From Candidatus Liptonbacteria bacterium (GTDB taxonomy: Bacteria; Patescibacteriota; Minisyncoccia; UBA6257; 2-01-FULL-56-20), in NCBI GenBank assembly GCA_023244895.1, contig JAHFLL010000001.1:745802-809801 (forward strand): 64,000 nt of DNA. Reading direction: 5' to 3'. The stretch's first letter is position 1. Each line of letters opens with the position of its first letter. Position numbers and translations under genes: made by a program. The notes beneath the pieces were generated by a model. The model searched no databases. It saw only the letters and a list, made by a program, of their open reading frames with translations, and was not told the DNA's origin. Of the stretch, positions 3,385-53,665 are shown in pieces.

Positions 3385-4485
3385 TTATTTTTTTTCTAAC
3401 GGCGCACCAATGCTGGAAAAAATTTCTTTGAACCTTTTCTCGGCGTAGTGATCTTTAATGGTTCGCTCATATCCCCTCTGGGCTATTTTTTCTCGTTCCT
3501 CATTATGCTCTAAATAGTAATTAATTTTTTCTGCTAAATCTTTGTTGTCCCGATAAAAAATAATTTCTTCGCCAGGCTTGTAATAATCCCTCAAATCATC
3601 CGCGTCTTGAGTAATCTCCGCGGTTCCACATGCGGGAATCTCAAAATTCCTTGCCTTCACCTGTAAAATCTTTTTCTGCATCCAAGAAGCAAAATTATCT
3701 CGGAAATTATGGATGTCTAGCTTATAGGGCAGTCCCCCTTCTCCCAAAAAGGCCCTCCTTATAAAAAGCCTTATAATTGGACGCCAGCCGAAATAAAAGG
3801 CGGGGGGGTTGAGGGACAGACTTATCTTACTACGATTTATAATGTCTATCATTTCTTCCTGGGTAACCGCTCCCTCTGGCCAACCGTTACCCCTGGTCAA
3901 AACTGAGATGTTTTTATCGCGAAGATAAGAGATGGTTTCTCCTCTTAACTTGCTCCAAGTGCCAACGAAACTGACATTTATGTCTTTGGCGGTATTGGTT
4001 TTTTTGTAAGTGCTCAAATCCACGCCTGGTTGACTATGAATTACGTTTTGACAGCCTATCTCGCGATAACGCGCCGGTGCATCCCCGCAATACGTTACTA
4101 TCCAGGAAAAAAACGGTGCGAAGTGGCGAGAGATTCTATCCCAGCTCCAACTATCGTCTACACACATATAAACCAATTTGGAATTTGATTTTTCTTTGAG
4201 CGCGCGCAACGTCTCTATGCCTATATCGTATTCTGCCCCGTGGAAAATACACACCTCCGGTTTTTCTCGCAAAATGTGATCTATTAGCATTTTCCTTGCC
4301 GGGTCGCGGCCATGCTCAAGAATGGCCTCATCTATCCAAAAAAACTCCACGCTGTGACCATTAGCCTCGGCTAAACGCTTTAGGGGTTGATATTCCAAGT
4401 AATAATTGGCGGTCCCGTTGCGATTGGTCTTTTCCCAACTACGACTGTAGTAATCGTTGCGATAATCTACTAATAGTATCTTCAT
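3385..4485 (-). CDS. CgeB-like glycosyltransferase (DUF3880 / GT1-like C-terminal domain), paralog A
   Basis: The C-terminal block FEIPACGTAEITQDADDLRDYYKPGEEIIFYRDNKDLAEKINYYLEHNEEREKIAQRGYERT is characteristic of spore-maturation CgeB-type glycosyltransferases. The same block recurs at 7182..8249 and 8259..9299. Confidence 0.5.
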   Translation of the reverse strand: MKILLVDYRNDYYSRSWEKTNRNGTANYYLEYQPLKRLAEANGHSVEFFWIDEAILEHGRDPARKMLIDHILREKPEVCIFHGAEYDIGIETLRALKEKSNSKLVYMCVDDSWSWDRISRHFAPFFSWIVTYCGDAPARYREIGCQNVIHSQPGVDLSTYKKTNTAKDINVSFVGTWSKLRGETISYLRDKNISVLTRGNGWPEGAVTQEEMIDIINRSKISLSLNPPAFYFGWRPIIRLFIRRAFLGEGGLPYKLDIHNFRDNFASWMQKKILQVKARNFEIPACGTAEITQDADDLRDYYKPGEEIIFYRDNKDLAEKINYYLEHNEEREKIAQRGYERTIKDHYAEKRFKEIFSSIGAPLEKK

Positions 4486-5670: not shown

Positions 5671-6605
5671 TGATTTTTTAAATTTTCTTTATACCAGGAA
5701 TAGGTACGCGCCAGACCATCTAGTAAGCCGATTTTAGCTTCCCAGCCCAAAGATTGCAAACGCTCTCCAGACAAGAGTTTGCGCAATGCACCATCCGGCT
5801 TGGATGCGTCCCAAGTGATTGTTCCAGAGAAACCAACCGTATGGGCTACGAGCTCCGCAAGCTCGCGAATAGAAACTTCCGAACTGCTGGCTATATTCAT
5901 TGTCCGCCATGGCAAATTGGGCTGATTCATAATAAACATACAGGCGTCGGCAATGTCGTCCGCATAAACAAATTCTCGTTGGGGCAGACCAGTACCCCAC
6001 AACTCAACCGTGGATGTGTTGTTTCGCACCGCTTCCTCAAAACGACGCAAAAAAACAGAAAGAACATGACCCTCATTAAGACTAAAATTGTCACCTGGTC
6101 CATAGGCAGTATTAGGAATAACTGTGACAAAATCCGTGCCGTATTGTTCGTGTAGATACTCCACCAGCTTCATCCCCGATATTTTTGCAATGGCATAGCC
6201 CAAGCTCGTTTCTTCCGGTAGCCCGCGCAAGAGCTCCTCCTCTCGCATGGGCTGAGCGCATGTCTTGGGATACATACACGAACTCCCAAAAAAAATAAGG
6301 CGCTTAACGCCAACATTATGCGCCGCGGATAAAACGTTTACCTGAATCTCTGTATTCTCAAGCAAAAAATCTGCTTGATGCGTACGGTTTGCCTGAATAC
6401 TACCAACCTTGCCCGCCGCCAGGAAGACATATTCTGGTCGCTCTATGTTAAAAAAATCTCGGACCGCTCGCTGATCGCGCAAATCTAATTCGGATCTGGT
6501 TTTAACAATAATGTTTGCATACCCCGCCTCTCGTAATTTTTGCAAAAGGGAACGGCCGATCAGTCCGGTGTGGCCCGCAACGTATATTTTAGAATCTCTT
6601 TCCAT
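5667..6605 (-). CDS. fcl: GDP-L-fucose synthase / GDP-L-colitose synthase-like reductase (Fcl/ColC), paralog 2
   Basis: It aligns along its whole length with Fcl (VAGHTGLIGRSL, FFGSSCMYPK, YAIAK, ending DASKPDG). Its start overlaps the downstream 3-dehydratase gene by 4 nt, which suggests translational coupling. Confidence 0.65.
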   Translation of the reverse strand: MERDSKIYVAGHTGLIGRSLLQKLREAGYANIIVKTRSELDLRDQRAVRDFFNIERPEYVFLAAGKVGSIQANRTHQADFLLENTEIQVNVLSAAHNVGVKRLIFFGSSCMYPKTCAQPMREEELLRGLPEETSLGYAIAKISGMKLVEYLHEQYGTDFVTVIPNTAYGPGDNFSLNEGHVLSVFLRRFEEAVRNNTSTVELWGTGLPQREFVYADDIADACMFIMNQPNLPWRTMNIASSSEVSIRELAELVAHTVGFSGTITWDASKPDGALRKLLSGERLQSLGWEAKIGLLDGLARTYSWYKENLKNQ

Positions 6606-6607
6606 GG

Positions 6608-7180
6608 TTATTTAAGCCTTGGCACTACCCGCTCACAGACGAAATGCACCAGAAGCGTATGCGCCTCTTGAATTATAGCCGTATTCTCGGAGGGAACCAC
6701 GATTGAAATGTCGCACTCCGATTTTATGATCCCTCCGTCTCGCCCCAGCAACCCGATAGTCTTCATGCCCAACTCTTTCGCTCTTCTCATGGCTTGAACT
6801 ATATTCTGAGAATTACCACTGGTAGATATCCCAAAAAACACATCCCCGACTTGGCCCAGAGCCTCTATCTGTCTAGAGAATATGCTATCCAGGTCGTCTT
6901 TTCCAAAATCGTTTATCCAGGCGGTAAGGTAGGACGTATCGGTAGTGAGGGAAACGGCGGGATACCCCTGTCTTTTCTCCCTATGTAGGGTGGCAACTAT
7001 TTCTGCGGAAAGGTGTTGCGCTTGAGCGGCGCTGCCCCCATTGCCCGCGATTAGCAATTTGTGCCTGGATATTAAGGTCGCACCTATCAGATCAATGGCC
7101 TGACCAACCTGTTTCTCTATGCCTCCATCTTTTAAGCTGGCAAGGGTGGAAATTGTCTCATCTAGTCTTTGATTAAACAT
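6608..7180 (-). CDS. gmhA: D-sedoheptulose-7-phosphate isomerase (SIS domain)
   Basis: The SIS-domain motif LIAGNGGSAAQAQH is present, and the 190 aa length is typical for GmhA. Confidence 0.7.
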   Translation of the reverse strand: MFNQRLDETISTLASLKDGGIEKQVGQAIDLIGATLISRHKLLIAGNGGSAAQAQHLSAEIVATLHREKRQGYPAVSLTTDTSYLTAWINDFGKDDLDSIFSRQIEALGQVGDVFFGISTSGNSQNIVQAMRRAKELGMKTIGLLGRDGGIIKSECDISIVVPSENTAIIQEAHTLLVHFVCERVVPRLK

Positions 7181-7181
7181 T

Positions 7182-8249
7182 TTATTTTTCTATTATAGAC
7201 CCTATTATTTTATCCACCGACTTGTCATAAGTGTAGTTCAATGCTATTGCTCTTGCTCGTTTTGCGCAAGACATCCTTTCTTCTGGTCGCTCTAAATAAT
7301 ATTCCACCTTTCTCTTGAGATCTTCATCGTCTTTGTAAAAACCGATGGATTCGCCGAATAATTCGTACGTTAGAGGCACCCGTTCGCTAACCTGGAAAAC
7401 ACCCGAAAGAGCTATGTCAAAAGTACGCTGAGTGGTAGTGGTAAAAGAATCTTTCGGCATACCCAAAGTACCTATTGCGATTTTAGCGCCATTGTAAACC
7501 AGATTGGACTTATCAATCGGCAAGGAGCCACCCCACTTGTCCTTGAGCCATGGGAACTCCAAAAATCCCATCTCCCATCCATAGCCATATATTTTCAGAT
7601 TGTATTCCCTGAATGCTTCCAGGGATTTAGCGCGTGAAGGTAAATATTTACCGATAAAGACTATGTCTGACTTATACTCTTCAGCAACCTCTGCTGGAAA
7701 AAATATATTGTGATCGGAGGCCAGAGGAAGAAGCTCGACTCTTTTTTTGTTTTTCTCCCAGAGCACCTCTCGCCAGAGCCCATCTCCCACCATAAAAACA
7801 CGGTCAAAATAATCAAATTTTTCCTCCCAAGTATCATCTCTAACAACTGGCTCTCCCAACCACAAGATCAGCTTGGCTTTAGTTAATGCGCGTAATAACT
7901 TCAAGACAAGATGCGATCCAGGCGTCCAAATAAAAACAACCAGACTATCTTTTCGCCAAGACAACCAGGCCCGAAACAATACCTCTAGTTCTGTTACGAA
8001 TTGGCGAGCTGTTTTTAGATAACGAAACAACCTGGGAGTTACTCGCCGGAGGGTCATCTTCGCGCGCTCTAAAACGTTGACTACTGAATCCTTGTTTCCG
8101 CCCCAAGTAGCGGGTACGGAATTATTATAGACAATAGTAGCGGCTAGGCCCCTCCGCAAGCAGGCCTGATAAAAAAGCTTGGCCCAATCTCCATACCAAG
8201 CAGCCCCAACCACCACTATTCTGACATTCTTCCTGATCATATCTGCCAC
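7182..8249 (-). CDS. CgeB-like glycosyltransferase, paralog B
   Basis: The C-terminal motif FDIALSGVFQVSERVPL...FYKDDEDLKRKVEYYLERPEER matches the two other CgeB-like paralogs. Confidence 0.45.
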   Translation of the reverse strand: MADMIRKNVRIVVVGAAWYGDWAKLFYQACLRRGLAATIVYNNSVPATWGGNKDSVVNVLERAKMTLRRVTPRLFRYLKTARQFVTELEVLFRAWLSWRKDSLVVFIWTPGSHLVLKLLRALTKAKLILWLGEPVVRDDTWEEKFDYFDRVFMVGDGLWREVLWEKNKKRVELLPLASDHNIFFPAEVAEEYKSDIVFIGKYLPSRAKSLEAFREYNLKIYGYGWEMGFLEFPWLKDKWGGSLPIDKSNLVYNGAKIAIGTLGMPKDSFTTTTQRTFDIALSGVFQVSERVPLTYELFGESIGFYKDDEDLKRKVEYYLERPEERMSCAKRARAIALNYTYDKSVDKIIGSIIEK

Positions 8250-9431: not shown

Positions 9432-10394
<963 letters not shown>

Positions 10395-10491
10395 CTAGAA
10401 GTATAGACCCGACCCTGGTTTTGGACAAATTTTAAGGCGCGTCCCCACTGGGAGACGCGCCTCATACGAGCCCGGACGCTATCCGGGCAAT

Positions 10492-11301
10492 CTATCTAAT
10501 GAGCGGAGCGACGAGTGTGCGCAGCTCGTCCGAGAGCTGGCGCGAGCACGCGATCACAATCGGGAACTTGCGCTGCCCGATTTCCGGATCCGCGAGATCC
10601 GGAACCGGCTCGTCCGCGGCTACGCCAGTCACGACGCAACCGGCCGCCCGGCAGATGGGGATGGCGGCAGCTACATCGAAGATGGTAGCGCCGGCGTGGA
10701 CATAGGCGTCCAACTTGCCCTGTGCCACCAGCATCGCCTCCCACACGAAGGAATTGATCATGCCGGTCATGCGGGCTTTCTGCCGGACATCCACGAATAC
10801 AGATTCCAACCCGGGCCAAGCTCCCACATCGACGAGAGCATCCCGAAGTCTGCAAGGGGAGGGCGACTCGACTCGGAGGTCGAAAGTTGCGGACAGGTCA
10901 CATTCGTAGCTCATACCCGCCTTGCCGTCGTCTTCCACCCAGAACCAGCTGCCCGCGCCGTCCACGGGTAGATAGATCATGCCGAACCCCCGGACGGTAC
11001 CGGCAGAGAGACCCCAGTAGTCCGACCCGCCGGCATAGTTCGCGGTTCCATCGATTGGGTCCAGAAACCATGTCCTCCCGCCAGTGAAGAATTCTCCTTC
11101 TTCGCTCATGATGCCGTCGCTGGGGAACATCTGGCGTAGCGCGACTGCGAGGATTCTTTCCGACTTCAGATCCGCTTCGGTCACAACGTCTTGAGGGGAG
11201 GTTTTGTCTTTGACCTCCATGCCCTCGCGAAGCGCTTCCAGGGCGGCGCTCCCCGCCTGAGTCATCGCGCTGGCCAGAGCCAGAATTTCTTCTCTAGTCA
11301 C
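10492..11301 (-). CDS. Inositol monophosphatase family phosphatase (GC-rich island A)
   Basis: It carries the WFLDPIDGTANYAGG signature of the IMPase/CysQ/SuhB family. GC content is about 65 %, against about 45 % for the flanking genes. Confidence 0.6.
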   Translation of the reverse strand: MTREEILALASAMTQAGSAALEALREGMEVKDKTSPQDVVTEADLKSERILAVALRQMFPSDGIMSEEGEFFTGGRTWFLDPIDGTANYAGGSDYWGLSAGTVRGFGMIYLPVDGAGSWFWVEDDGKAGMSYECDLSATFDLRVESPSPCRLRDALVDVGAWPGLESVFVDVRQKARMTGMINSFVWEAMLVAQGKLDAYVHAGATIFDVAAAIPICRAAGCVVTGVAADEPVPDLADPEIGQRKFPIVIACSRQLSDELRTLVAPLIR

Positions 11302-11302
11302 G

Positions 11303-11890
11303 CTACACCCCCTTCTCTAGGAAGTTGACTGCCCAGCGCGTTGCCTGGACTGACTTGGCGTCCGAAATCAGGCCGTCGTCACACATTGCGACCCAGTCTG
11401 CCAGGTCGTAGAGAACCGGCAGGATGAGCTCGGTCCCATCCGGCTTCGGCTCCTGCACGAGCTCACATTCTTGAGCGACAGCCACCAGGCCCTCCATGCG
11501 TAAGGAGGCGGGGTCAACGAATACTCTGCGATCCCAGAAGATGTGAATGTATCTGGGCCAGTAGCCGGTCTCCTCGACCAACTCCACTCTGACCACATCC
11601 TCGTGGGTCTGCCCGGCCTTGGGATTGCCCCCAGGTAGCTCCAAGATCCAGGCGTTAATCGCGTGGCGATACTGCCAGGTCACAATGACTTCGTTTGCCT
11701 TGGTGACCGGAAAGATGAACACCGGTCGGGTGTTGGCGCCGAACAACCAAAAGTCGGCGGTTTTCCCGTCCGGATAGGAGAAGTCCTGAGAGAACATTCT
11801 CCTGCCGTACCTCTGGAGCTGAACCTGTTCGGGACCCAGTTGGGGCGAAATCCTAGCTGCCGGGACCTCGCCTCTTCGCAACTTCAGCAT
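11303..11890 (-). CDS. Nudix-family hydrolase (GC-rich island A)
   Basis: It has a Nudix-like box GGNPKAGQTHEDVVRVELVEETGY with one residue of slippage. The gene is GC-rich, has a GGGGGA-type RBS, and its stop is 2 nt from the IMPase start. Confidence 0.45.
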   Translation of the reverse strand: MLKLRRGEVPAARISPQLGPEQVQLQRYGRRMFSQDFSYPDGKTADFWLFGANTRPVFIFPVTKANEVIVTWQYRHAINAWILELPGGNPKAGQTHEDVVRVELVEETGYWPRYIHIFWDRRVFVDPASLRMEGLVAVAQECELVQEPKPDGTELILPVLYDLADWVAMCDDGLISDAKSVQATRWAVNFLEKGV

Positions 11891-11971
11891 CTTGATCCCC
11901 CGCTACAAACCACAACGTATTCCTATGCAGGTCCCGGGTGGGACCCAGGACCGACTAGGCCAAGTTATAAA

Positions 11972-12001
11972 TTAAAAAACCATTTCAGTCAATAAAATGG
12001 T
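11972..12001 (-). terminator. Rho-independent terminator downstream of gmd
   Basis: On the minus strand there is a hairpin ACCATTTT-ATTGACTGA-AAATGGT followed by TTTTTTAATTT. Confidence 0.5.
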
Positions 12002-22321: not shown

Positions 22322-22403
22322 GCCCGGGTGGCGAAATTGGTAGACGCGCACGTTTCAGGTACGTGTGGGGTAACCCTTGGGAGTTCGAGTCTCCCCCCGG
22401 GCA
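22322..22403 (+). tRNA. tRNA-Leu (anticodon CAG)
   Basis: The cloverleaf has a perfect acceptor stem GCCCGGG/CCCGGGC, anticodon stem CACGT/ACGTG with loop TTCAGGT, a long variable arm, and T-arm GGGAG-TTCGAGT-CTCCC. CCA is not encoded. Confidence 0.8.
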
Positions 22404-22485
22404 CATAAATTAGAAACTAGAAGCTAGTGGTTAGTCTTTGGCGTTCTCTAATTTAAATAAGTCAAAATAAAAAATAAATAAAAAA

Positions 22486-37985: not shown

Positions 37986-38258
37986 TCACGTCGCTAACTT
38001 CGTAGGTAGCCCCTTAGAAAATCTATCTATAAGCATTTCCTTCTTATCTCTGCGCCATTTCTTGATTTGAACTTCTCGGTGGCGAGCCTCGTTTAATGTA
38101 TCGTGCCTTTCATAAAATACAACGCTAAATATTGACTTACCTTTTGTAAATTGAGCGCCCTGTTTTGAGTTGTGATGTTTTAGCCTGCTCTCAATGTCTT
38201 TTGTTATACCAACATACAACTTCCCAAAATCATTTCTAATCATATACACAAAGAACAT
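37986..38258 (-). CDS. GIY-YIG nuclease-domain small protein
   Basis: It is 90 aa and has the motif FFVYMIRNDFGKLYVGITKDIESRLKHHN, the GIY-YIG signature with its conserved Arg and His. Confidence 0.6.
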   Translation of the reverse strand: MFFVYMIRNDFGKLYVGITKDIESRLKHHNSKQGAQFTKGKSIFSVVFYERHDTLNEARHREVQIKKWRRDKKEMLIDRFSKGLPTKLAT

Positions 38259-38365
38259 ATACTAATTCTATCAAACCTGCCCGTTCGACTCTCGCCTGCG
38301 ACGAACGCAGTCGAATCGCTCAGGGCACTCGACTCTTATTTAAAGTGGCTTGCCACGAGAGAAGT

Positions 38366-38389
38366 AAAGCCCCCCTTAAGGGGGGCTTT
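38366..38389 (-). terminator. Terminator hairpin immediately 3' of tmRNA
   Basis: There is a perfect hairpin AAAGCCCCCC-TTAA-GGGGGGCTTT. Confidence 0.55.
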
Positions 38390-38399
38390 ACGAGTCGAG

Positions 38400-38722
38400 T
38401 GGAGATGGGCGGAGTCGAACCGCCGTGTAAGACAGAAACCGATGAATCATCTACGAGTGTAGTTCGCTAAAGCGGACAAACACTCCACATTCTTTCGCGC
38501 CATATGCGGTGGAGCACGTATATATGGCCCTAGCCTCCTTGTATAAGACCGGTATCAAGCTAAGAGGCCCAGCCTGGCCGATCCTCCAGACGCTACGCGT
38601 TAAACGTAGGCGAAAGCTGGAGCTGCAACTTTATTGTTGGCAGTTAAGATTTTTGCCAGATTTACGAGGTGGCACTCGACTCGCCGATTCAAGGTACTGA
38701 CTTATCGAAGCCGGTCATCCCC
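38400..38722 (-). ncRNA. ssrA: tmRNA (SsrA), about 323 nt without CCA
   Basis: On the minus strand the 5' end reads GGGGATGACCGGCTTCGATAAG and the 3' end reads GGCGGTTCGACTCCGCCCATCTCCA. The T-arm is GGCGG-TTCGACT-CCGCC. The acceptor stem GGGGATG/CATCTCC contains the G3-U70 alanine identity pair. The candidate in-frame tag is GCC-AAC-AAT-AAA-GTT-GCA-GCT-CCA-GCT-TTC-GCC-TAC-GTT-TAA (ANNKVAAPAFAYV*), which is tentative. smpB lies 4 kb away. Confidence 0.75.
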
Positions 38723-38845
38723 GTTTTCGATTGCTCTTATATTCTAACATAAATTTATATTATTGACAATATCCCATATCAAGTGATATAACCTGGCCAG
38801 CCGTCGCGCACGATCGCGCGACACAATGATTCTGGGGGTAAATCC

Positions 38846-39406
38846 ATGGGACTTCCGCCATACCTGTGCTTTGACAGAGAGATCTGCAAGTCGACAGTCG
38901 AAACCCTGCTGACAAAGCTCCGTAGCGCGAACTCCACAAATCGCGTGTACGTGAGCTCGCCCGGAGGGACGTTCGACTTTTTTTCGGTGCTCGGCCCGGC
39001 TATCCAACGCCAGGGCATCGTGACCCTGTCGGGCGACGTCCGCTCGGCAGCAGTCGTCCTCTTCCTGCTTGGACACGTACGGCAGGCCCTGCCGGACGCG
39101 ACATTCTTCTTCCACGAAGTGAGGACGTTCGTCGGCCAGGGCAACCAGATCACCGTGGCCGACCTGGAACACGCCGAGGAGTATGAGCGGATGATGTCTG
39201 CTGAAGGACAGGAGGCGTACCAGGAATGGCGCCAGAGCATGAAGATGGCCCAGGCTTGGTTCGCGCGCTTCATCTCCACCCAGACCGGACTCCCCGCGAG
39301 CACGTTCCTCAATCTCATGCGTGCCGAGGCAACCCTCTCCGCTCGGGAGGCAGTTCGGTACGGCATCGTGCACGAGATCGTGCCGGCCAGACTCGTCTGG
39401 AAATAG
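38846..39406 (+). CDS. ClpP-family (S14) serine peptidase-like protein, short form (GC-rich island C)
   Basis: It aligns to the ClpP core: SSPGGTFDFFSVLGPAIQRQGIVTLSGDVRSAAVVLFLLGH carries the Ser of the GxS motif, FFFHEV carries the His, and the C-terminus reads LSAREAVRYGIVHEIV. It is GC-rich with a GGGGG RBS. The opposite-strand ORFs are R-rich antisense artefacts. Confidence 0.5.
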   Translation: MGLPPYLCFDREICKSTVETLLTKLRSANSTNRVYVSSPGGTFDFFSVLGPAIQRQGIVTLSGDVRSAAVVLFLLGHVRQALPDATFFFHEVRTFVGQGNQITVADLEHAEEYERMMSAEGQEAYQEWRQSMKMAQAWFARFISTQTGLPASTFLNLMRAEATLSAREAVRYGIVHEIVPARLVWK

Positions 39407-39530
39407 CGACAGTGGACGGGCACGCGCAGCGCGTGCCTGCCCCAACCTCAGTTTGGGAAATTTTCGCAAATTGAGGTTGGGTAAAAATTTATTAAACGAA
39501 ACGGGCCCGGTCGCGAATGACCAAGCCCGT

Positions 39531-40295
39531 CTATCTTACTTTGTCACCATTCCCGTTTTGAGGCGGGAAACGGCGACGCAACTCCCGCAAGATGGGTTCG
39601 GCCTCTTTTTGCCGCTTCTCCCGCTGGAGCAGTTCTGCTAAGGCGAATTTGGCTTCCGCCACATCCAGCTCAGAGCAGGAAGAACAAGAGGTGGCCCGAT
39701 GAATGTGCGCGAGGGCCTTGTCGTGGCTACCTCCGCCCAGGAGCCGGCGTACTGCCCAAGAACGTTCGGCGACAACCTGCTCGATCCAGCCCAGAGCGGT
39801 AAGCGCCCGCGCGTGATTAGGGTCGCGCACCAACACTCTCTCTAACCCGGCGCGGGCAGAGCGATACTCACCGAGCCCGGTCTTGCGGTCCAACACCTGT
39901 AGGTTCAGCCACAGCTTATTGAGATGTAGCTTTGCCAACAGAAACTCGCAGCGGGCGTTGCGGGGAGAGTCGCGCAGGCACCTCTCGGCTTGGCGAACTC
40001 CCTCCGCCTGCAGTCTTAAGAATTCGGCTAGCGTACTCGGGTCGGGGGCCTGTTTGCTAAGTAATAGACCCGAACCATTCACGCCCGCCTGTTTCCGAAG
40101 CCGGAAGAGTAGCGCGCTGGTATGCGCCTCGTAGCTCTCCGGATCGTCCGGAAACAGCTTACGAGCCGCAGTTGCCCGCGTTGCCGCTACTTGGAAGTCC
40201 TGCCTGAAAAACGCTTCTCGGGACGCGTTTATTCTGGTCTCATACTCGGCGGGCAGGGCGAGCATGAGCAGAAGTCCCCAAATGGACCAGTTCAT
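39531..40295 (-). CDS. Secreted helical (TPR-like) hypothetical protein (GC-rich island C)
   Basis: It has a signal peptide MNWSIWGLLLMLALPA, a repetitive helical composition, and a GGAGG RBS. Confidence 0.35.
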   Translation of the reverse strand: MNWSIWGLLLMLALPAEYETRINASREAFFRQDFQVAATRATAARKLFPDDPESYEAHTSALLFRLRKQAGVNGSGLLLSKQAPDPSTLAEFLRLQAEGVRQAERCLRDSPRNARCEFLLAKLHLNKLWLNLQVLDRKTGLGEYRSARAGLERVLVRDPNHARALTALGWIEQVVAERSWAVRRLLGGGSHDKALAHIHRATSCSSCSELDVAEAKFALAELLQREKRQKEAEPILRELRRRFPPQNGNGDKVR

Positions 40296-40372
40296 GTTGC
40301 ACCTCCCCGTGCTGGTTCGGATTCTAGCAGGAAAAGTTTTGGGCGCAAGTTAAGTAATGTTAAAATAACCTC

Positions 40373-41248
40373 ATGCAAATCTTTGGCATCGCCTGGGCGC
40401 TCGTCGCGCTTTTTAGTTTTGGCTTTGGGGATTTTATGATTCAGCGCGCCACTCGTAGAATCGGGGATGTTCACGCTCTCTTTTATATCGGTATAACCGG
40501 CGGAATAGTTCTTCTACCTTTTATTTGGCAGGAGTTGCCAAACATATTTTCCAATAGTAATGGGATTGTTTTGCTTTTAGTTGTCTCCGTAATAACGGTG
40601 ATAGCTTCTTTGTTTGATTTTGAGGCACTGAAAGTGGGAAAAATTTCTATTATTAACCCGATTACCGGGCTGGAATTGCCCATAACCGTAGCGCTTGGAA
40701 TTTTTATTTTAGACGAGTGGATGGGCTGGTTGGATTTTGTGCTTATGATTTTAGTTTTTACGGGGATAGCGCTCGCCTCTTTCGGTGGGAAACTTAGACA
40801 CTTTTTTGAAACCAATTATCTGGAGAAGGGTGTGGTTCTCGCGTTTATAAGCGCCATCACCATGGCTCTCTTAAACTTTTTCGTGGGTGTTTCAAGCGAA
40901 GAGACTTCTCCGCTTCTCACTATTTGGTTCGCATTTCTATTCTCCGGAATATTTTGCCTGATAATTATGCTTATAACCGGGACTGCCAGACAAATTGGGC
41001 GCGACCTCCGACATAATCCTAAATTGATTATCGCGCAGTGTTCGCTAGACACGCTGGGCTGGGTTGCCTTTGCGCAAGCGACCACTTTTATATCCATTGC
41101 CATCACCACAACTATCAGCGAAGCATACATAGCGCTCTCCGCCCTTTTAGGCTTGTGGGTTGGCAGAGAAAAATTGGCGACTCACCAGAAAATAGGCATA
41201 GCCGTAACTATTGCCGGCGTTTTGATTTTATCCGCCTTAGTTTCATAG
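40373..41248 (+). CDS. EamA/DMT-superfamily transporter
   Basis: It has 10 TM helices and the two-repeat EamA architecture. Its GC content matches the backbone. Confidence 0.65.
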   Translation: MQIFGIAWALVALFSFGFGDFMIQRATRRIGDVHALFYIGITGGIVLLPFIWQELPNIFSNSNGIVLLLVVSVITVIASLFDFEALKVGKISIINPITGLELPITVALGIFILDEWMGWLDFVLMILVFTGIALASFGGKLRHFFETNYLEKGVVLAFISAITMALLNFFVGVSSEETSPLLTIWFAFLFSGIFCLIIMLITGTARQIGRDLRHNPKLIIAQCSLDTLGWVAFAQATTFISIAITTTISEAYIALSALLGLWVGREKLATHQKIGIAVTIAGVLILSALVS

Positions 41249-41321
41249 CCTTATTTGACTTTTTAGAAATTTATTATAAAATGTAGCCCTGTTCTTTGAA
41301 GGGGATGGAGGTCCCCTGCTG

Positions 41322-42173
41322 ATGACTATCCGACTTCTTGTTGCGGCGCTAGCGTTCCTGCTTTTCGTTCCCATAGGGGTATCGGCGCAGGACGCCAAGC
41401 CTAGTCCGTGGTCGGGGTTCGCGTACATACACCTCAACACGGATACGAGCCGCGACGGAGGGAAGATGGAAATCCCCCGAGCGCGGCTACGCCTGACACG
41501 TAAACCCCAAGAGGGTTGCGCGGCGGGGCAGGTGGAACTTGACCCGTCTGACCAGAGCTGGGTCCACCAGGCCTGGCTGGCCTGTCACACGGAAAACGGC
41601 TGGGCCATGAAGATTGGGCGGGTGTTTCTGTCCGCGCTGACTCAGAGCCCGCCGCCCTTCCTCCTCCGGGAGGTGGGGTATCAAGGAAGCTATCCCTACA
41701 ACGCCTACGCCTATGGGGCGCAGGTAGAGGGTCCGTTGGGAAGGGGTTGGAAGGTCGGAGTCGACTTCACTGGCAAGTCCGGACTCGACTTCTCCGCGCC
41801 GGGGCAGTTCCGGGGCATGGAGGTCTCCCTGCTCGTCTCTCGGAAGAAGGGGGTTGTGGGGTACGGCTTTGCGGCCCAGGTCGGAAGCGACATCGCGTCG
41901 CGCTACGGCCTAAATGGCGAGTGGCGCGCGAAGCGTTTTACACTCAGCGGGCTCGTAAGCTACGCGACTGAGCGCAAACACGCGGAAGGGTTCGTGGTCG
42001 CAGAGCTTCGCCTAACCGAATTCCTCCAGCCGTACTTCCAGCTGGACCGGAGCAAGGGCCACACCACCTGGCTCCTCGGCCTCCAGTTCCGGCCAAGCGG
42101 CAACGTCTTTCTGGTCGCCGACGCGAATCGCGCGCGGGCGGCCACCAGGACGCAGGTTTTCTTCAAGAAGTAG
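41322..42173 (+). CDS. Secreted beta-rich protein, possible beta-barrel (GC-rich island D)
   Basis: It has a signal peptide (LLFVPIGVSA-QD) and alternating hydrophobic strands (RFTLSGLVSYATE, GFVVAELRLTEF, TTWLLGLQF). It is a paralog of the island-E protein and has a GGAGG RBS. Confidence 0.4.
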   Translation: MTIRLLVAALAFLLFVPIGVSAQDAKPSPWSGFAYIHLNTDTSRDGGKMEIPRARLRLTRKPQEGCAAGQVELDPSDQSWVHQAWLACHTENGWAMKIGRVFLSALTQSPPPFLLREVGYQGSYPYNAYAYGAQVEGPLGRGWKVGVDFTGKSGLDFSAPGQFRGMEVSLLVSRKKGVVGYGFAAQVGSDIASRYGLNGEWRAKRFTLSGLVSYATERKHAEGFVVAELRLTEFLQPYFQLDRSKGHTTWLLGLQFRPSGNVFLVADANRARAATRTQVFFKK

Positions 42174-52844: not shown

Positions 52845-53396
52845 TCAAATCGAACGGGCGATTAACCCAATAATTAGTATGCCCAAAGAATTTAGCGCGA
52901 AAGAAAGCGGGGCGAAATACTTGTTGGGCATCTTGGTCGCGCCCCAAATAGCGAGTCCAACCTCATCCGGCAAGGGAGAGGCGATAATAATAGCTCCCAG
53001 CAACGGGAATATCCAGCGGAATATCTTAAGGTGGAATATGTGGGACCAACGTTCCCGCTCTGGTTTATTAAACAACGCGAAGAGCGCCTCCGAGATATCG
53101 TCTCGAAAGAATCGGAAGATTAAAAAGTCTCCTAGAAGCGCGCCTAATCCTCCAAAAAGCGCCGTCCAAAAAATGGAATATTCTTGAGCTATCTCGCCCA
53201 GCGCTATAGTCGCGGGAATAGTTGTAAAGATGGAGGAGAAAAACATGCCTCCCAGGAAGCTCGCTATCATTTTGGCTTCGGAGGCAAGACCTAAAATATA
53301 CACGACCGCCTGAGTTTTAATCAGAACAAACCCCACTAAGATGCTGATAAAAATGATTACCAAGTCCCAGGCCAGTCGATTTTTCTCGAAGTTCAT
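52845..53396 (-). CDS. Integral membrane protein (small export-protein-like)
   Basis: It has 4-5 TM helices and no confident family assignment. Confidence 0.35.
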   Translation of the reverse strand: MNFEKNRLAWDLVIIFISILVGFVLIKTQAVVYILGLASEAKMIASFLGGMFFSSIFTTIPATIALGEIAQEYSIFWTALFGGLGALLGDFLIFRFFRDDISEALFALFNKPERERWSHIFHLKIFRWIFPLLGAIIIASPLPDEVGLAIWGATKMPNKYFAPLSFALNSLGILIIGLIARSI

Positions 53397-53481
53397 GATT
53401 ATGAGTATAGCAAAACCCCAGTTCGTGCGCCCACGAGGAACAACTCGACCGTGTTCACCACAAATTAAACCTCATACTCAG

Positions 53482-53665
53482 TGCTCCCGACAGGAATTGA
53501 ACCTGTATCGCCTCCCCCGCCCCGCACCTTTTGCCTACGTGCCCCCGGTTGGAATCGAACCAGCATTTCCTCCTTCGGAGGGAGATGTCCTATCCATTGA
53601 ACGACGAGGGCTTTATAAGGTGCGGGGTGAAGAGGGAGATGTCCTATCCGTTGAACGACGAGAGC
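53482..53665 (-). other. Split tRNA-like gene whose 5' half (53632-53665) and 3' half (53482-53515) flank the tRNA-Arg(CCG) gene
   Basis: The 5' half GCTCTCGTCGTTCAACGGATAGGACATCTCCCTC is a near-copy of the inner tRNA's 5' half. The 3' half GGAGG-CGAT-ACAGG-TTCAATT-CCTGT-CGGGAGC-A supplies an anticodon-stem 3' strand, a perfect T-arm and an acceptor 3' strand complementary to the upstream half, including a compensatory 3-70 T-A pair. An 11 bp inverted repeat CCCCGCACCTT / AAGGTGCGGGG brackets the inner tRNA. Confidence 0.3.
53540..53611 (-). tRNA. tRNA-Arg (anticodon CCG), 72 nt
   Basis: The acceptor stem is GCCCTCG/CGGGGGC with one G-U pair. D-arm is GTTC-AATGGATA-GGAC. Anticodon stem is TCTCC/GGAGG with loop CTCCGAA. 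T-arm is GCTGG-TTCGATT-CCAAC with one C-A mismatch. Confidence 0.7.

Follow-up and report, generated by a model that had tools for sequence, protein, structure and literature searches.

A tRNA-Arg(CCG) gene between transposon-like inverted repeats inside a split tRNA-Arg(CCG) gene of a Patescibacteria genome

How does a complete tRNA gene come to lie inside a second tRNA gene of the same identity, and which of the two serves the cell? The question is raised by a locus on the minus strand of a 64-kb stretch of a Candidatus Liptonbacteria genome (contig JAHFLL010000001.1, positions 745,802 to 809,801; the whole 64,000 nt is hereafter the window), where the two halves of one tRNA-Arg gene stand apart around an intact tRNA-Arg(CCG) gene flanked by inverted repeats. 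Our best reading is that a selfish cassette disrupted a tRNA gene while supplying a replacement of the same identity, and we hold it probable that the cassette split the resident gene with a tRNA-Arg(CCG) of its own, the inner gene now doing the work and the outer halves being a very young remnant. The parts of the locus, from 5' to 3', are as follows.

53632..53665, minus strand: 5' half of the outer tRNA-Arg, GCTCTCGTCGTTCAACGGATAGGACATCTCCCTC, positions 1-34 (acceptor strand, D arm, 5' strand of the anticodon stem, loop nucleotides C32, U33 and C34)
53628..53631, minus strand: TTCA, 4 nt that separate the outer loop from arm 1
53617..53627, minus strand: arm 1, CCCCGCACCTT, a terminal inverted repeat of a mobile-element family
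53612..53616, minus strand: spacer ATAAA between arm 1 and the inner tRNA
53540..53611, minus strand: inner tRNA-Arg(CCG), a complete cloverleaf and the presumed working gene (ARAGORN and Rfam)
53531..53539, minus strand: spacer CGTAGGCAA between the inner tRNA and arm 2
53520..53530, minus strand: arm 2, AAGGTGCGGGG, the second terminal inverted repeat
53516..53519, minus strand: CGGG, loop positions 35-38 (CGAA in an intact relative)
53482..53515, minus strand: 3' half of the outer tRNA-Arg (anticodon-stem 3' strand GGAGG, variable loop CGAT, T arm ACAGG-TTCAATT-CCTGT, acceptor strand CGGGAGC, A73)

The inner gene, which an initial annotation made from the sequence by eye had placed correctly, was called Arg-CCG by ARAGORN and scored 54 bits against the Rfam model RF00005 (curated threshold 29), with a contiguous cloverleaf and a 7-nt anticodon loop. 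Reading of the minus strand and a repeat search upheld what the same annotation had said of the outer gene: its 5' half matches that of the inner gene at 32 of 34 positions (part of a 37-nt direct repeat at 95%), its divergent 3' half has a perfect T arm, the halves lie 116 nt apart, and they pair at all seven acceptor positions (G-C, C-G, T-A, C-G, a T.G wobble, C-G and G-C). All four outer stems pair, and a tRNA is called there only once the insert is deleted in silico. With the 116-nt interruption in place there is no contiguous cloverleaf; neither Rfam nor ARAGORN run with introns of up to 400 nt, a check that the annotation had proposed, reported an outer gene, and neither junction of the insert rebuilds a tRNA. 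The description of a tRNA gene interrupted in its anticodon loop by an insert holding a well-formed tRNA stands.

Arms, spacers and inner tRNA together form a 108-nt unit without an open reading frame (ORF) of its own. The 11-bp inverted repeat is perfect, as first described, although it had been placed about 8 nt off (at 53619-53609 and 53529-53519), and it is the sole such arm pair within the window. In the fold of the 198-nt RNA we recovered the outer acceptor stem, D arm and T arm, and the anticodon stem and 11-bp helix together form one long arm, the repeat extending the outer anticodon stem in this fold; at the junction a 7-bp helix is followed by a 1x2 internal loop and then the 11-bp helix. 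The fold had a z-score of -3.3, and an equally good one arose in 0 of 200 shuffles. An independent Logan assembly (L007), whose contig breaks off inside the repeat, contains the outer 5' half, TTCA, the arm and the first part of the inner tRNA; because it reproduces the 5' junction, the locus is not one assembler's artefact. Scanning the locus for promoters and terminators gave no match.

What stood at this place before the insert is indicated by related genomes. The window contains a transfer-messenger RNA (tmRNA), so the organism is a bacterium, and the gene upstream of the nested locus encodes an amino-acid permease; its homologues belong to Patescibacteria, several under the label Candidatus Liptonbacteria. 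In the closest relative (L001/L002, with a permease 81% identical and the same gene order) the locus holds one uninterrupted tRNA-Arg(CCG), which equals the window's outer 5' half, CGAA and outer 3' half in succession: positions 1-34 are identical (34/34), the 3' half differs only at positions 44 and 45, and of the 72 positions of the joined outer gene 68 are unchanged, the differences being at 37, 38, 44 and 45 only. Because L001/L002 carry this intact equivalent at the same spot, we take the outer gene to be the resident, ancestral one; on that comparison the lineage had this tRNA-Arg(CCG) from the start, and the insert separates its position 34 from position 35. The T3-A70 pair of the outer gene, earlier interpreted as compensatory, occurs unchanged in L001, which has no nest, and so is no more than the allele of the resident gene.

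A single intact tRNA-Arg(CCG) without arms occupies the syntenic locus in seven relatives (L001/2, L005, L006, L138, L139, L141 and L142/3), whose permeases range from 81% down to ~45% identity with that of the window. [quoted passage not shown] The initial annotation was right to reject a simple tandem duplication, since the relatives have one intact gene here; the two ordinary tandem tRNA-Arg genes that it had named as the finding that would count against it are not what they show. The inner tRNA resembles the syntenic tRNA of L006, L138 and L139 in its acceptor and T arm, and that of L001 in its D stem, anticodon stem and variable loop. Judged by these likenesses, the inner gene is not copied from the outer gene. 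Gene conversion as the source of the shared 5' half was set aside as unnecessary, the inner gene resembling normal alleles of relatives, and a history of three tandem genes with two deletions was ruled out by the single gene in relatives and by spacers that are mutually inverted repeats.

Three relatives show further peculiarities beside the tRNA. Between the tRNA and a 183-aa ORF, L001 has two extra genes (L001 3999-6051, compared with window 52845-53481), encoding 111 aa and a 479-aa ABC1-family kinase, which are absent from the window, so that an insertion or deletion took place right beside the tRNA locus. In L006 (5192-7061; permease 50% identical) an ORF of the GIY-YIG type adjoins the syntenic tRNA-Arg(CCG) upstream, and the end of a 530-aa large serine recombinase gene overlaps the tRNA, which implies that the tRNA-Arg(CCG) gene is also a target of an integrase-type element. 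In L005, whose tRNA-Arg(CCG) belongs to quite a different sequence class, an 8-nt arm-like string (CCCGCACC, at 4113-4121) lies between the permease stop codon and the tRNA; it may be a remnant of an earlier replacement or may have arisen by chance, and as a remnant we judged it too weak to count.

The nature of the insert is best read from its arms. We scanned metagenome contigs for exact arm pairs in the form CCCCGCACCTT-N(70-100)-AAGGTGCGGGG and found them in at least 120 contigs, so that the perfect 11-bp arms of the window recur as a pair in many dispersed copies; 43 contigs held several arm pairs, at spacings of 20-300 nt. Identical 4-nt flanks bordered 56 of 120 copies, as against a mean of 7.2 and a maximum of 18 when flanks were shuffled (5000 shuffles). 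The flank consensus is T-N-N-A and the repeat consensus CCCCGCACCTT(Y)T, spanning ~13-14 nt; the ends of the family are thus 11-14 bp long. Pairing continues beyond the arms for a mean of only 2.7 bp, on which ground we dropped the idea of a long hairpin selected for its structure. Because copies share their ends and many have 4-nt T-N-N-A target-site duplications, the arms are on this evidence the ends of a MITE-like transposable-element family abundant in Patescibacteria-rich metagenomes. The reading of the outer gene as a working split or intron-bearing tRNA finds no support here, the helix that bridges its halves being the ends of a widespread mobile family.

The interiors of the copies are very diverse, and whole tRNAs occur in 7 of the at least 120. 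These tRNA-bearing units differ from the rest in their flanks: none of the 7 has a target-site duplication, as opposed to 56 of the other 113 (Fisher p = 0.014). The window copy behaves likewise, with TTCA on one side and CGGG on the other, unlike the family as a whole; its TTCA fits the T-N-N-A flank but has no duplicate across the element. Scans of viral contigs found no copies of the element, so nothing in them speaks for a phage vector. The element matches no Rfam family, our literature search found no paper describing the repeat sequence or family, and the family seems to be undescribed.

Copies elsewhere (many loci within L024-L127, e.g., L042 4735-4838, L045 781-893 and L082 8436-8546) occupy characteristic sites. 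Some lie directly upstream of TTGACA in the arrangement TTGA[element]TTGACA, which keeps the -35 box. Others sit at overlaps of stop and start codons as ATGAA[element]TGAA, where the duplicated TGAA together with the arm's final G forms a GTG start a few nucleotides past the arm's AAGG, a possible ribosome-binding site. Such insertion sites would be places of little harm in a compact genome. One copy (L112 258-360) interrupts a bacterial 16S rRNA gene in its 3' region, at what we take, by comparison with Escherichia coli, to be about the tip of helix 44, where a hairpin would presumably merely lengthen the helix; near the 3' end of the same gene (L112 393-623) is a group I intron-like sequence that scored 47.7 bits against RF00028 (threshold 50). 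In L120 (~7590-7650, minus strand) the 3' end of a tRNA-Tyr, CCCCACGCACCTT, is one base off the arm CCCCGCACCTT, a likeness that may point to an origin of the arms in the acceptor end of a tRNA.

Nests like that of the window recur. The same Arg nest, with identical junctions CTC-TTCA[arm...arm]CGGG-GGAGG, was found in two further Patescibacteria lineages, L018/L137 and L133. The former is a metagenome-assembled genome from Hainich groundwater with a gene order like that of the window (in L137 the RNase J-like protein is 62% and the permease 42% identical to the window's); the latter is labelled Candidatus Saccharibacteria and has a different neighbourhood, with S15, NYN and PNPase genes downstream. 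Among the three, the spacers and both tRNA bodies differ (the spacer from arm 1 to the inner tRNA is ATAAA, TTTAAGAT or TTAAT, and that before arm 2 also varies), and where the outer stems differ the changes come in pairs. Because L018 was found by its exact arms, and L133 and L137 by an exact match to the 5' junction, independent conservation of the junctions is limited to arm 2 and CGGG in L133 and to TTCA and CGGG in L018. Scanning a genome collection for the 5' junction gave 10 matches, of which those in L133 and L137 were real; the other 8 were chance matches in high-GC coding DNA.

Further nests came from a search that made no use of the arms, in which 850 kb of retrieved loci were examined for tRNAs with recurring halves alongside and inserts were deleted in silico. 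In L064 a tRNA-Met(CAT) lies in a Met-like outer gene, where no simple excision restores a CAU loop. In L068 a Gln-like outer gene has one element in its anticodon loop and a second, with variant arms and carrying tRNA-Gln, in its T loop. Two nests occur in L066: at 3.7 kb a tRNA-Glu(CTC) lies in a Glu-like outer gene with arm 1 decayed and the outer T stem broken, and at 12.9 kb a Val outer gene has two insertions and an intact inner gene, with a third, truncated copy. In L069 a tRNA-Glu lies inside a tRNA-Lys, with a near-perfect classic 4-nt duplication at the insertion. L069 is the sole exception to shared identity of inner and outer gene, which holds in 5 of 6 independent nests: Arg-CCG in Arg-CCG in the window, L137 and L133, and likewise for Met, Gln, Glu and Val. 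L064 also has a pseudo-tRNA-Lys with many short insertions, in the D loop and T arm, following an intact tRNA-Lys(CTT); between the tRNA genes of this contig lie short tandem repeats that resemble TCGGATGTCGGATTTC and CGTAAATC (6590-6640, 6870-6975, 7050-7095 and 7230-7270).

Among nests in the anticodon loop, those of three isoacceptors (the Arg nests, L064 and the Glu nest of L066) have TTCA directly 5' of arm 1, and their 3' flanks differ (CGGG, CAAG, TCAG). In the T-loop nests (L028, L068) and in one tRNA-free copy, L014, the flanks form a TTCA/CGRR pair, read in one orientation. Outer genes are flawless in the window, L133, L064 and L068, and decayed at both L066 loci and in L028, where the outer gene is reduced to a 3' fragment. 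Remnants of differing age would look like this, in a sample obtained by methods that favour young nests.

Our preferred reading joins these observations as follows. A cassette made of element ends and a tRNA would come to sit inside its cognate resident gene, and the cell would survive the insertion only because the cassette brings a tRNA of the same identity. The inner gene would be transcribed with the locus, released by the ordinary tRNA end-processing enzymes and so supply CGG decoding; the outer halves, and later the arms, would decay until a replaced tRNA gene was left. Simple transposition does not appear to have brought the window copy, since the copy lacks a target-site duplication and no T-N-N-A site exists in the resident loop, CTCCGAA. 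The window nest was probably imported by recombination from DNA already nested, with the tRNA halves serving as homology and a short donor tract left at the junction. Such an import would place the differences from L001 next to the junction and make them match other Arg nests, and the changes at 37, 38, 44 and 45 do match the other two (CGGG; YGRT variable loop). The nest would also be young, because 68 of 72 outer positions are unchanged in spite of only 44% identity between the window and L001 at fourfold-degenerate sites of the permease next door; the 95% bound on neutral divergence since disruption is ~0.045 per site. The distribution is patchy, with L137 (permease 42%) nested and nearer relatives un-nested.

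Several points weigh against this reading. Activity of the inner gene and loss of function in the outer one are both inferred from sequence. The analysis covered 64 kb of a genome of ~840 kb, and another tRNA that reads CGG may lie elsewhere in it. The inner tRNA has a C50.A64 mismatch in its T stem (Rfam alignment) that the outer gene lacks, and the outer stems are flawless in both the window and L133, as they would be in a gene still functional. Once TTCA and the arms are deleted, the loop that remains is a valid one of 7 nt, CUCCGGG, with CCG as its anticodon. That three deep lineages share the TTCA...CGGG junction exactly points to strong constraint or else to a single origin followed by spread, and the apparent conservation of the arms is in part an ascertainment effect, because the searches required exact arms or the 5' junction. 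Recombination would have to work through homology arms of ~34 nt. Finally, the 850 kb of retrieved loci contained no long arm-bounded coding unit that could be an autonomous copy or encode a transposase; candidates for such an element were merely pairs of separate small copies.

The points about the outer gene also speak for a quite different reading, in which the arm helix directs a non-group-I excision, or joins two pieces, the outer gene matures with the loop CUCCGGG and the inner tRNA is released from the 'intron'. The mature outer tRNA of ~72 nt would then read ...CCCUC joined to CGGGGGAGG..., and with outer C34 joined to C35 ...AUCUCCCUC joined to CGGGGGAGGCGAU.... Besides the valid Arg-CCG loop, this reading can cite a cloverleaf with 0 changes in its 68 non-junction positions although neutral divergence from L001 is near saturation; the sharing of identical junctions by three lineages, where 15 nt of the L133 junction (arm 2 and CGGG) lay outside the search pattern; a long, near-continuous duplex of helix and anticodon stem that includes G.U pairs possible only on the tRNA strand; and the known richness of Patescibacteria in tRNA introns (PMC13011429). 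However, the arms are those of a DNA transposon family with target-site duplications, and the fold lacks a bulge-helix-bulge (two 3-nt bulges around a 4-bp helix). The initial annotation had already excluded a group I intron, and the insert is indeed only 116 nt, mostly tRNA; Rfam searches, at the gathering threshold and even at E <= 10, gave no RF00028 match at the locus and found the inner tRNA only. To our knowledge no bacterial enzyme set would excise and re-ligate such an insert. The Met nest of L064 cannot restore its CAU, other nests have decayed and multiply interrupted outer genes that would be unexpected were the element harmlessly spliced, an inner tRNA of the same identity would be needless if the outer gene worked, and seven relatives do without the insert. 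We therefore consider this reading improbable. We likewise give little credence to its most striking form, a transposon-derived helix co-opted as a non-group-I bacterial tRNA intron, with one transcript yielding two tRNA-Arg(CCG), one matured around the other; it would be the first protein-dependent tRNA intron in bacteria.

Other readings keep the outer gene as a remnant, or as a scar, and differ in how the insert arrived. It is unlikely, though less so than the other alternatives, that some enzyme made independent site-specific ('homing') insertions in each lineage, of a cassette with ends TTCA-arm...arm-CGRR, into the anticodon loop (or T loop) of the cognate tRNA gene, with no need of recombination. 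The TTCA next to arm 1 in nests of three isoacceptors fits such insertions, as do the TTCA/CGGG or TTCA/CGAA flank pairs that recur in one orientation in L028, L068(2) and L014, the lack of target-site duplications in tRNA-bearing units and the shared identity in most nests. Yet no candidate enzyme gene was seen beside any nest, the 3' flanks differ among the Arg, Met and Glu nests, and the window changes at 44 and 45, outside any plausible element end, match other nests as a recombination tract would. An ancient nest, inherited vertically from the ancestor of the window genome and L137 and precisely lost several times, would explain the same syntenic locus and the identical junctions in those two, but it would require at least three or four independent losses, each rebuilding a perfect CTCCGAA loop and an AAAT/AGAT variable loop and leaving no footprint besides the weak string in L005; a non-functional outer gene would have decayed over that time, and the L133 nest lies in a different gene neighbourhood. 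The chance of such a history is very small. Smaller still, in our estimate, is that of an assembly artefact or the scar of an integrase-type island or prophage with the tRNA as attachment site. tRNA genes are classic integration sites (PMC4383910), the L006 gene has a recombinase and a GIY-YIG ORF against it, and L001 and the window differ by two genes just downstream. An integrase, however, duplicates the 3' part of a tRNA around a large island, whereas here the 5' half is duplicated, both halves are displaced with only 116 nt intervening, and no integrase lies near the locus in the window. The artefact is excluded by the independent assembly L007 and by the same architecture in the unrelated assemblies L018/L137 and L133.

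The element family invites comparison with bacterial MITEs and the palindromic repeats of reduced genomes, such as the Rickettsia palindromic elements and the Correia elements of Neisseria. Like these, its copies are ~100 nt, non-coding and dispersed in large number, with hairpin-forming terminal inverted repeats and a short target-site duplication, and they insert at gene junctions, in promoters and even in RNA genes (L112). It is unlike them in that some copies carry a complete tRNA and sit in a tRNA gene of the same identity without target-site duplication, and no partner transposase was found for the family. [quoted passage not shown] There the agent is an entire temperate phage that has a tyrosine integrase and shares an attP/attB core of ~10 bp with its target (PMC10865867), whereas the window element is ~110 nt, has no enzyme of its own and places the replacement inside the disrupted anticodon loop, and its compensation is inferred.

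A survey of tRNA introns in Patescibacteria found group I introns averaging 257 nt and nothing like the window insert (PMC13011429). The two share a phylum, a target in the anticodon loop (33/34 to 36/37) and a host gene missed by standard tRNA finders; the window insert has no group I fold, and its 116 nt hold a tRNA and have inverted-repeat ends of transposon type. With archaeal split tRNAs and bulge-helix-bulge introns (Nanoarchaeum type; PMC4090602, PMC3400036) the locus has in common a GC-rich flanking helix stacked on the anticodon stem, but the host is a bacterium, there is no bulge-helix-bulge, a single locus holds both halves at a distance of 116 nt, and the helix belongs to the ends of a transposon. 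Islands in tRNA genes (Islander, PMC4383910) likewise put a complete tRNA beside a displaced fragment of the original; an island completes the gene from a 3' segment of its own, and a single 3' fragment ends up kilobases away (PMC4383910), whereas here both halves are displaced around a complete gene of foreign allele, with neither island nor integrase.

Should our preferred reading hold, a minimal genome can harbour a non-autonomous element of ~110 bases inside an essential, single-copy RNA gene because the element supplies a spare of that gene, the logic of whole-phage tRNA-dependent lysogeny shrunk to a miniature element. It would offer a possible route for the horizontal replacement of tRNA alleles between Patescibacteria lineages, and such replacement may explain the large differences of syntenic tRNA-Arg genes among close relatives. 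For annotators the family end CCCCGCACCTT with its T-N-N-A duplication is a useful mark, as its copies mask or mimic tRNA genes and turn up in promoters, gene junctions and 16S rRNA.

Two other observations concern the remainder of the window. ARAGORN called a tRNA-Leu(CAG) at 22322-22404 that Rfam, run on the whole window at the gathering threshold, did not report. Local GC content rises to 54-56% at 10001-12000 and 38001-42000, against ~47% elsewhere, and the tmRNA gene falls in the second of these stretches.

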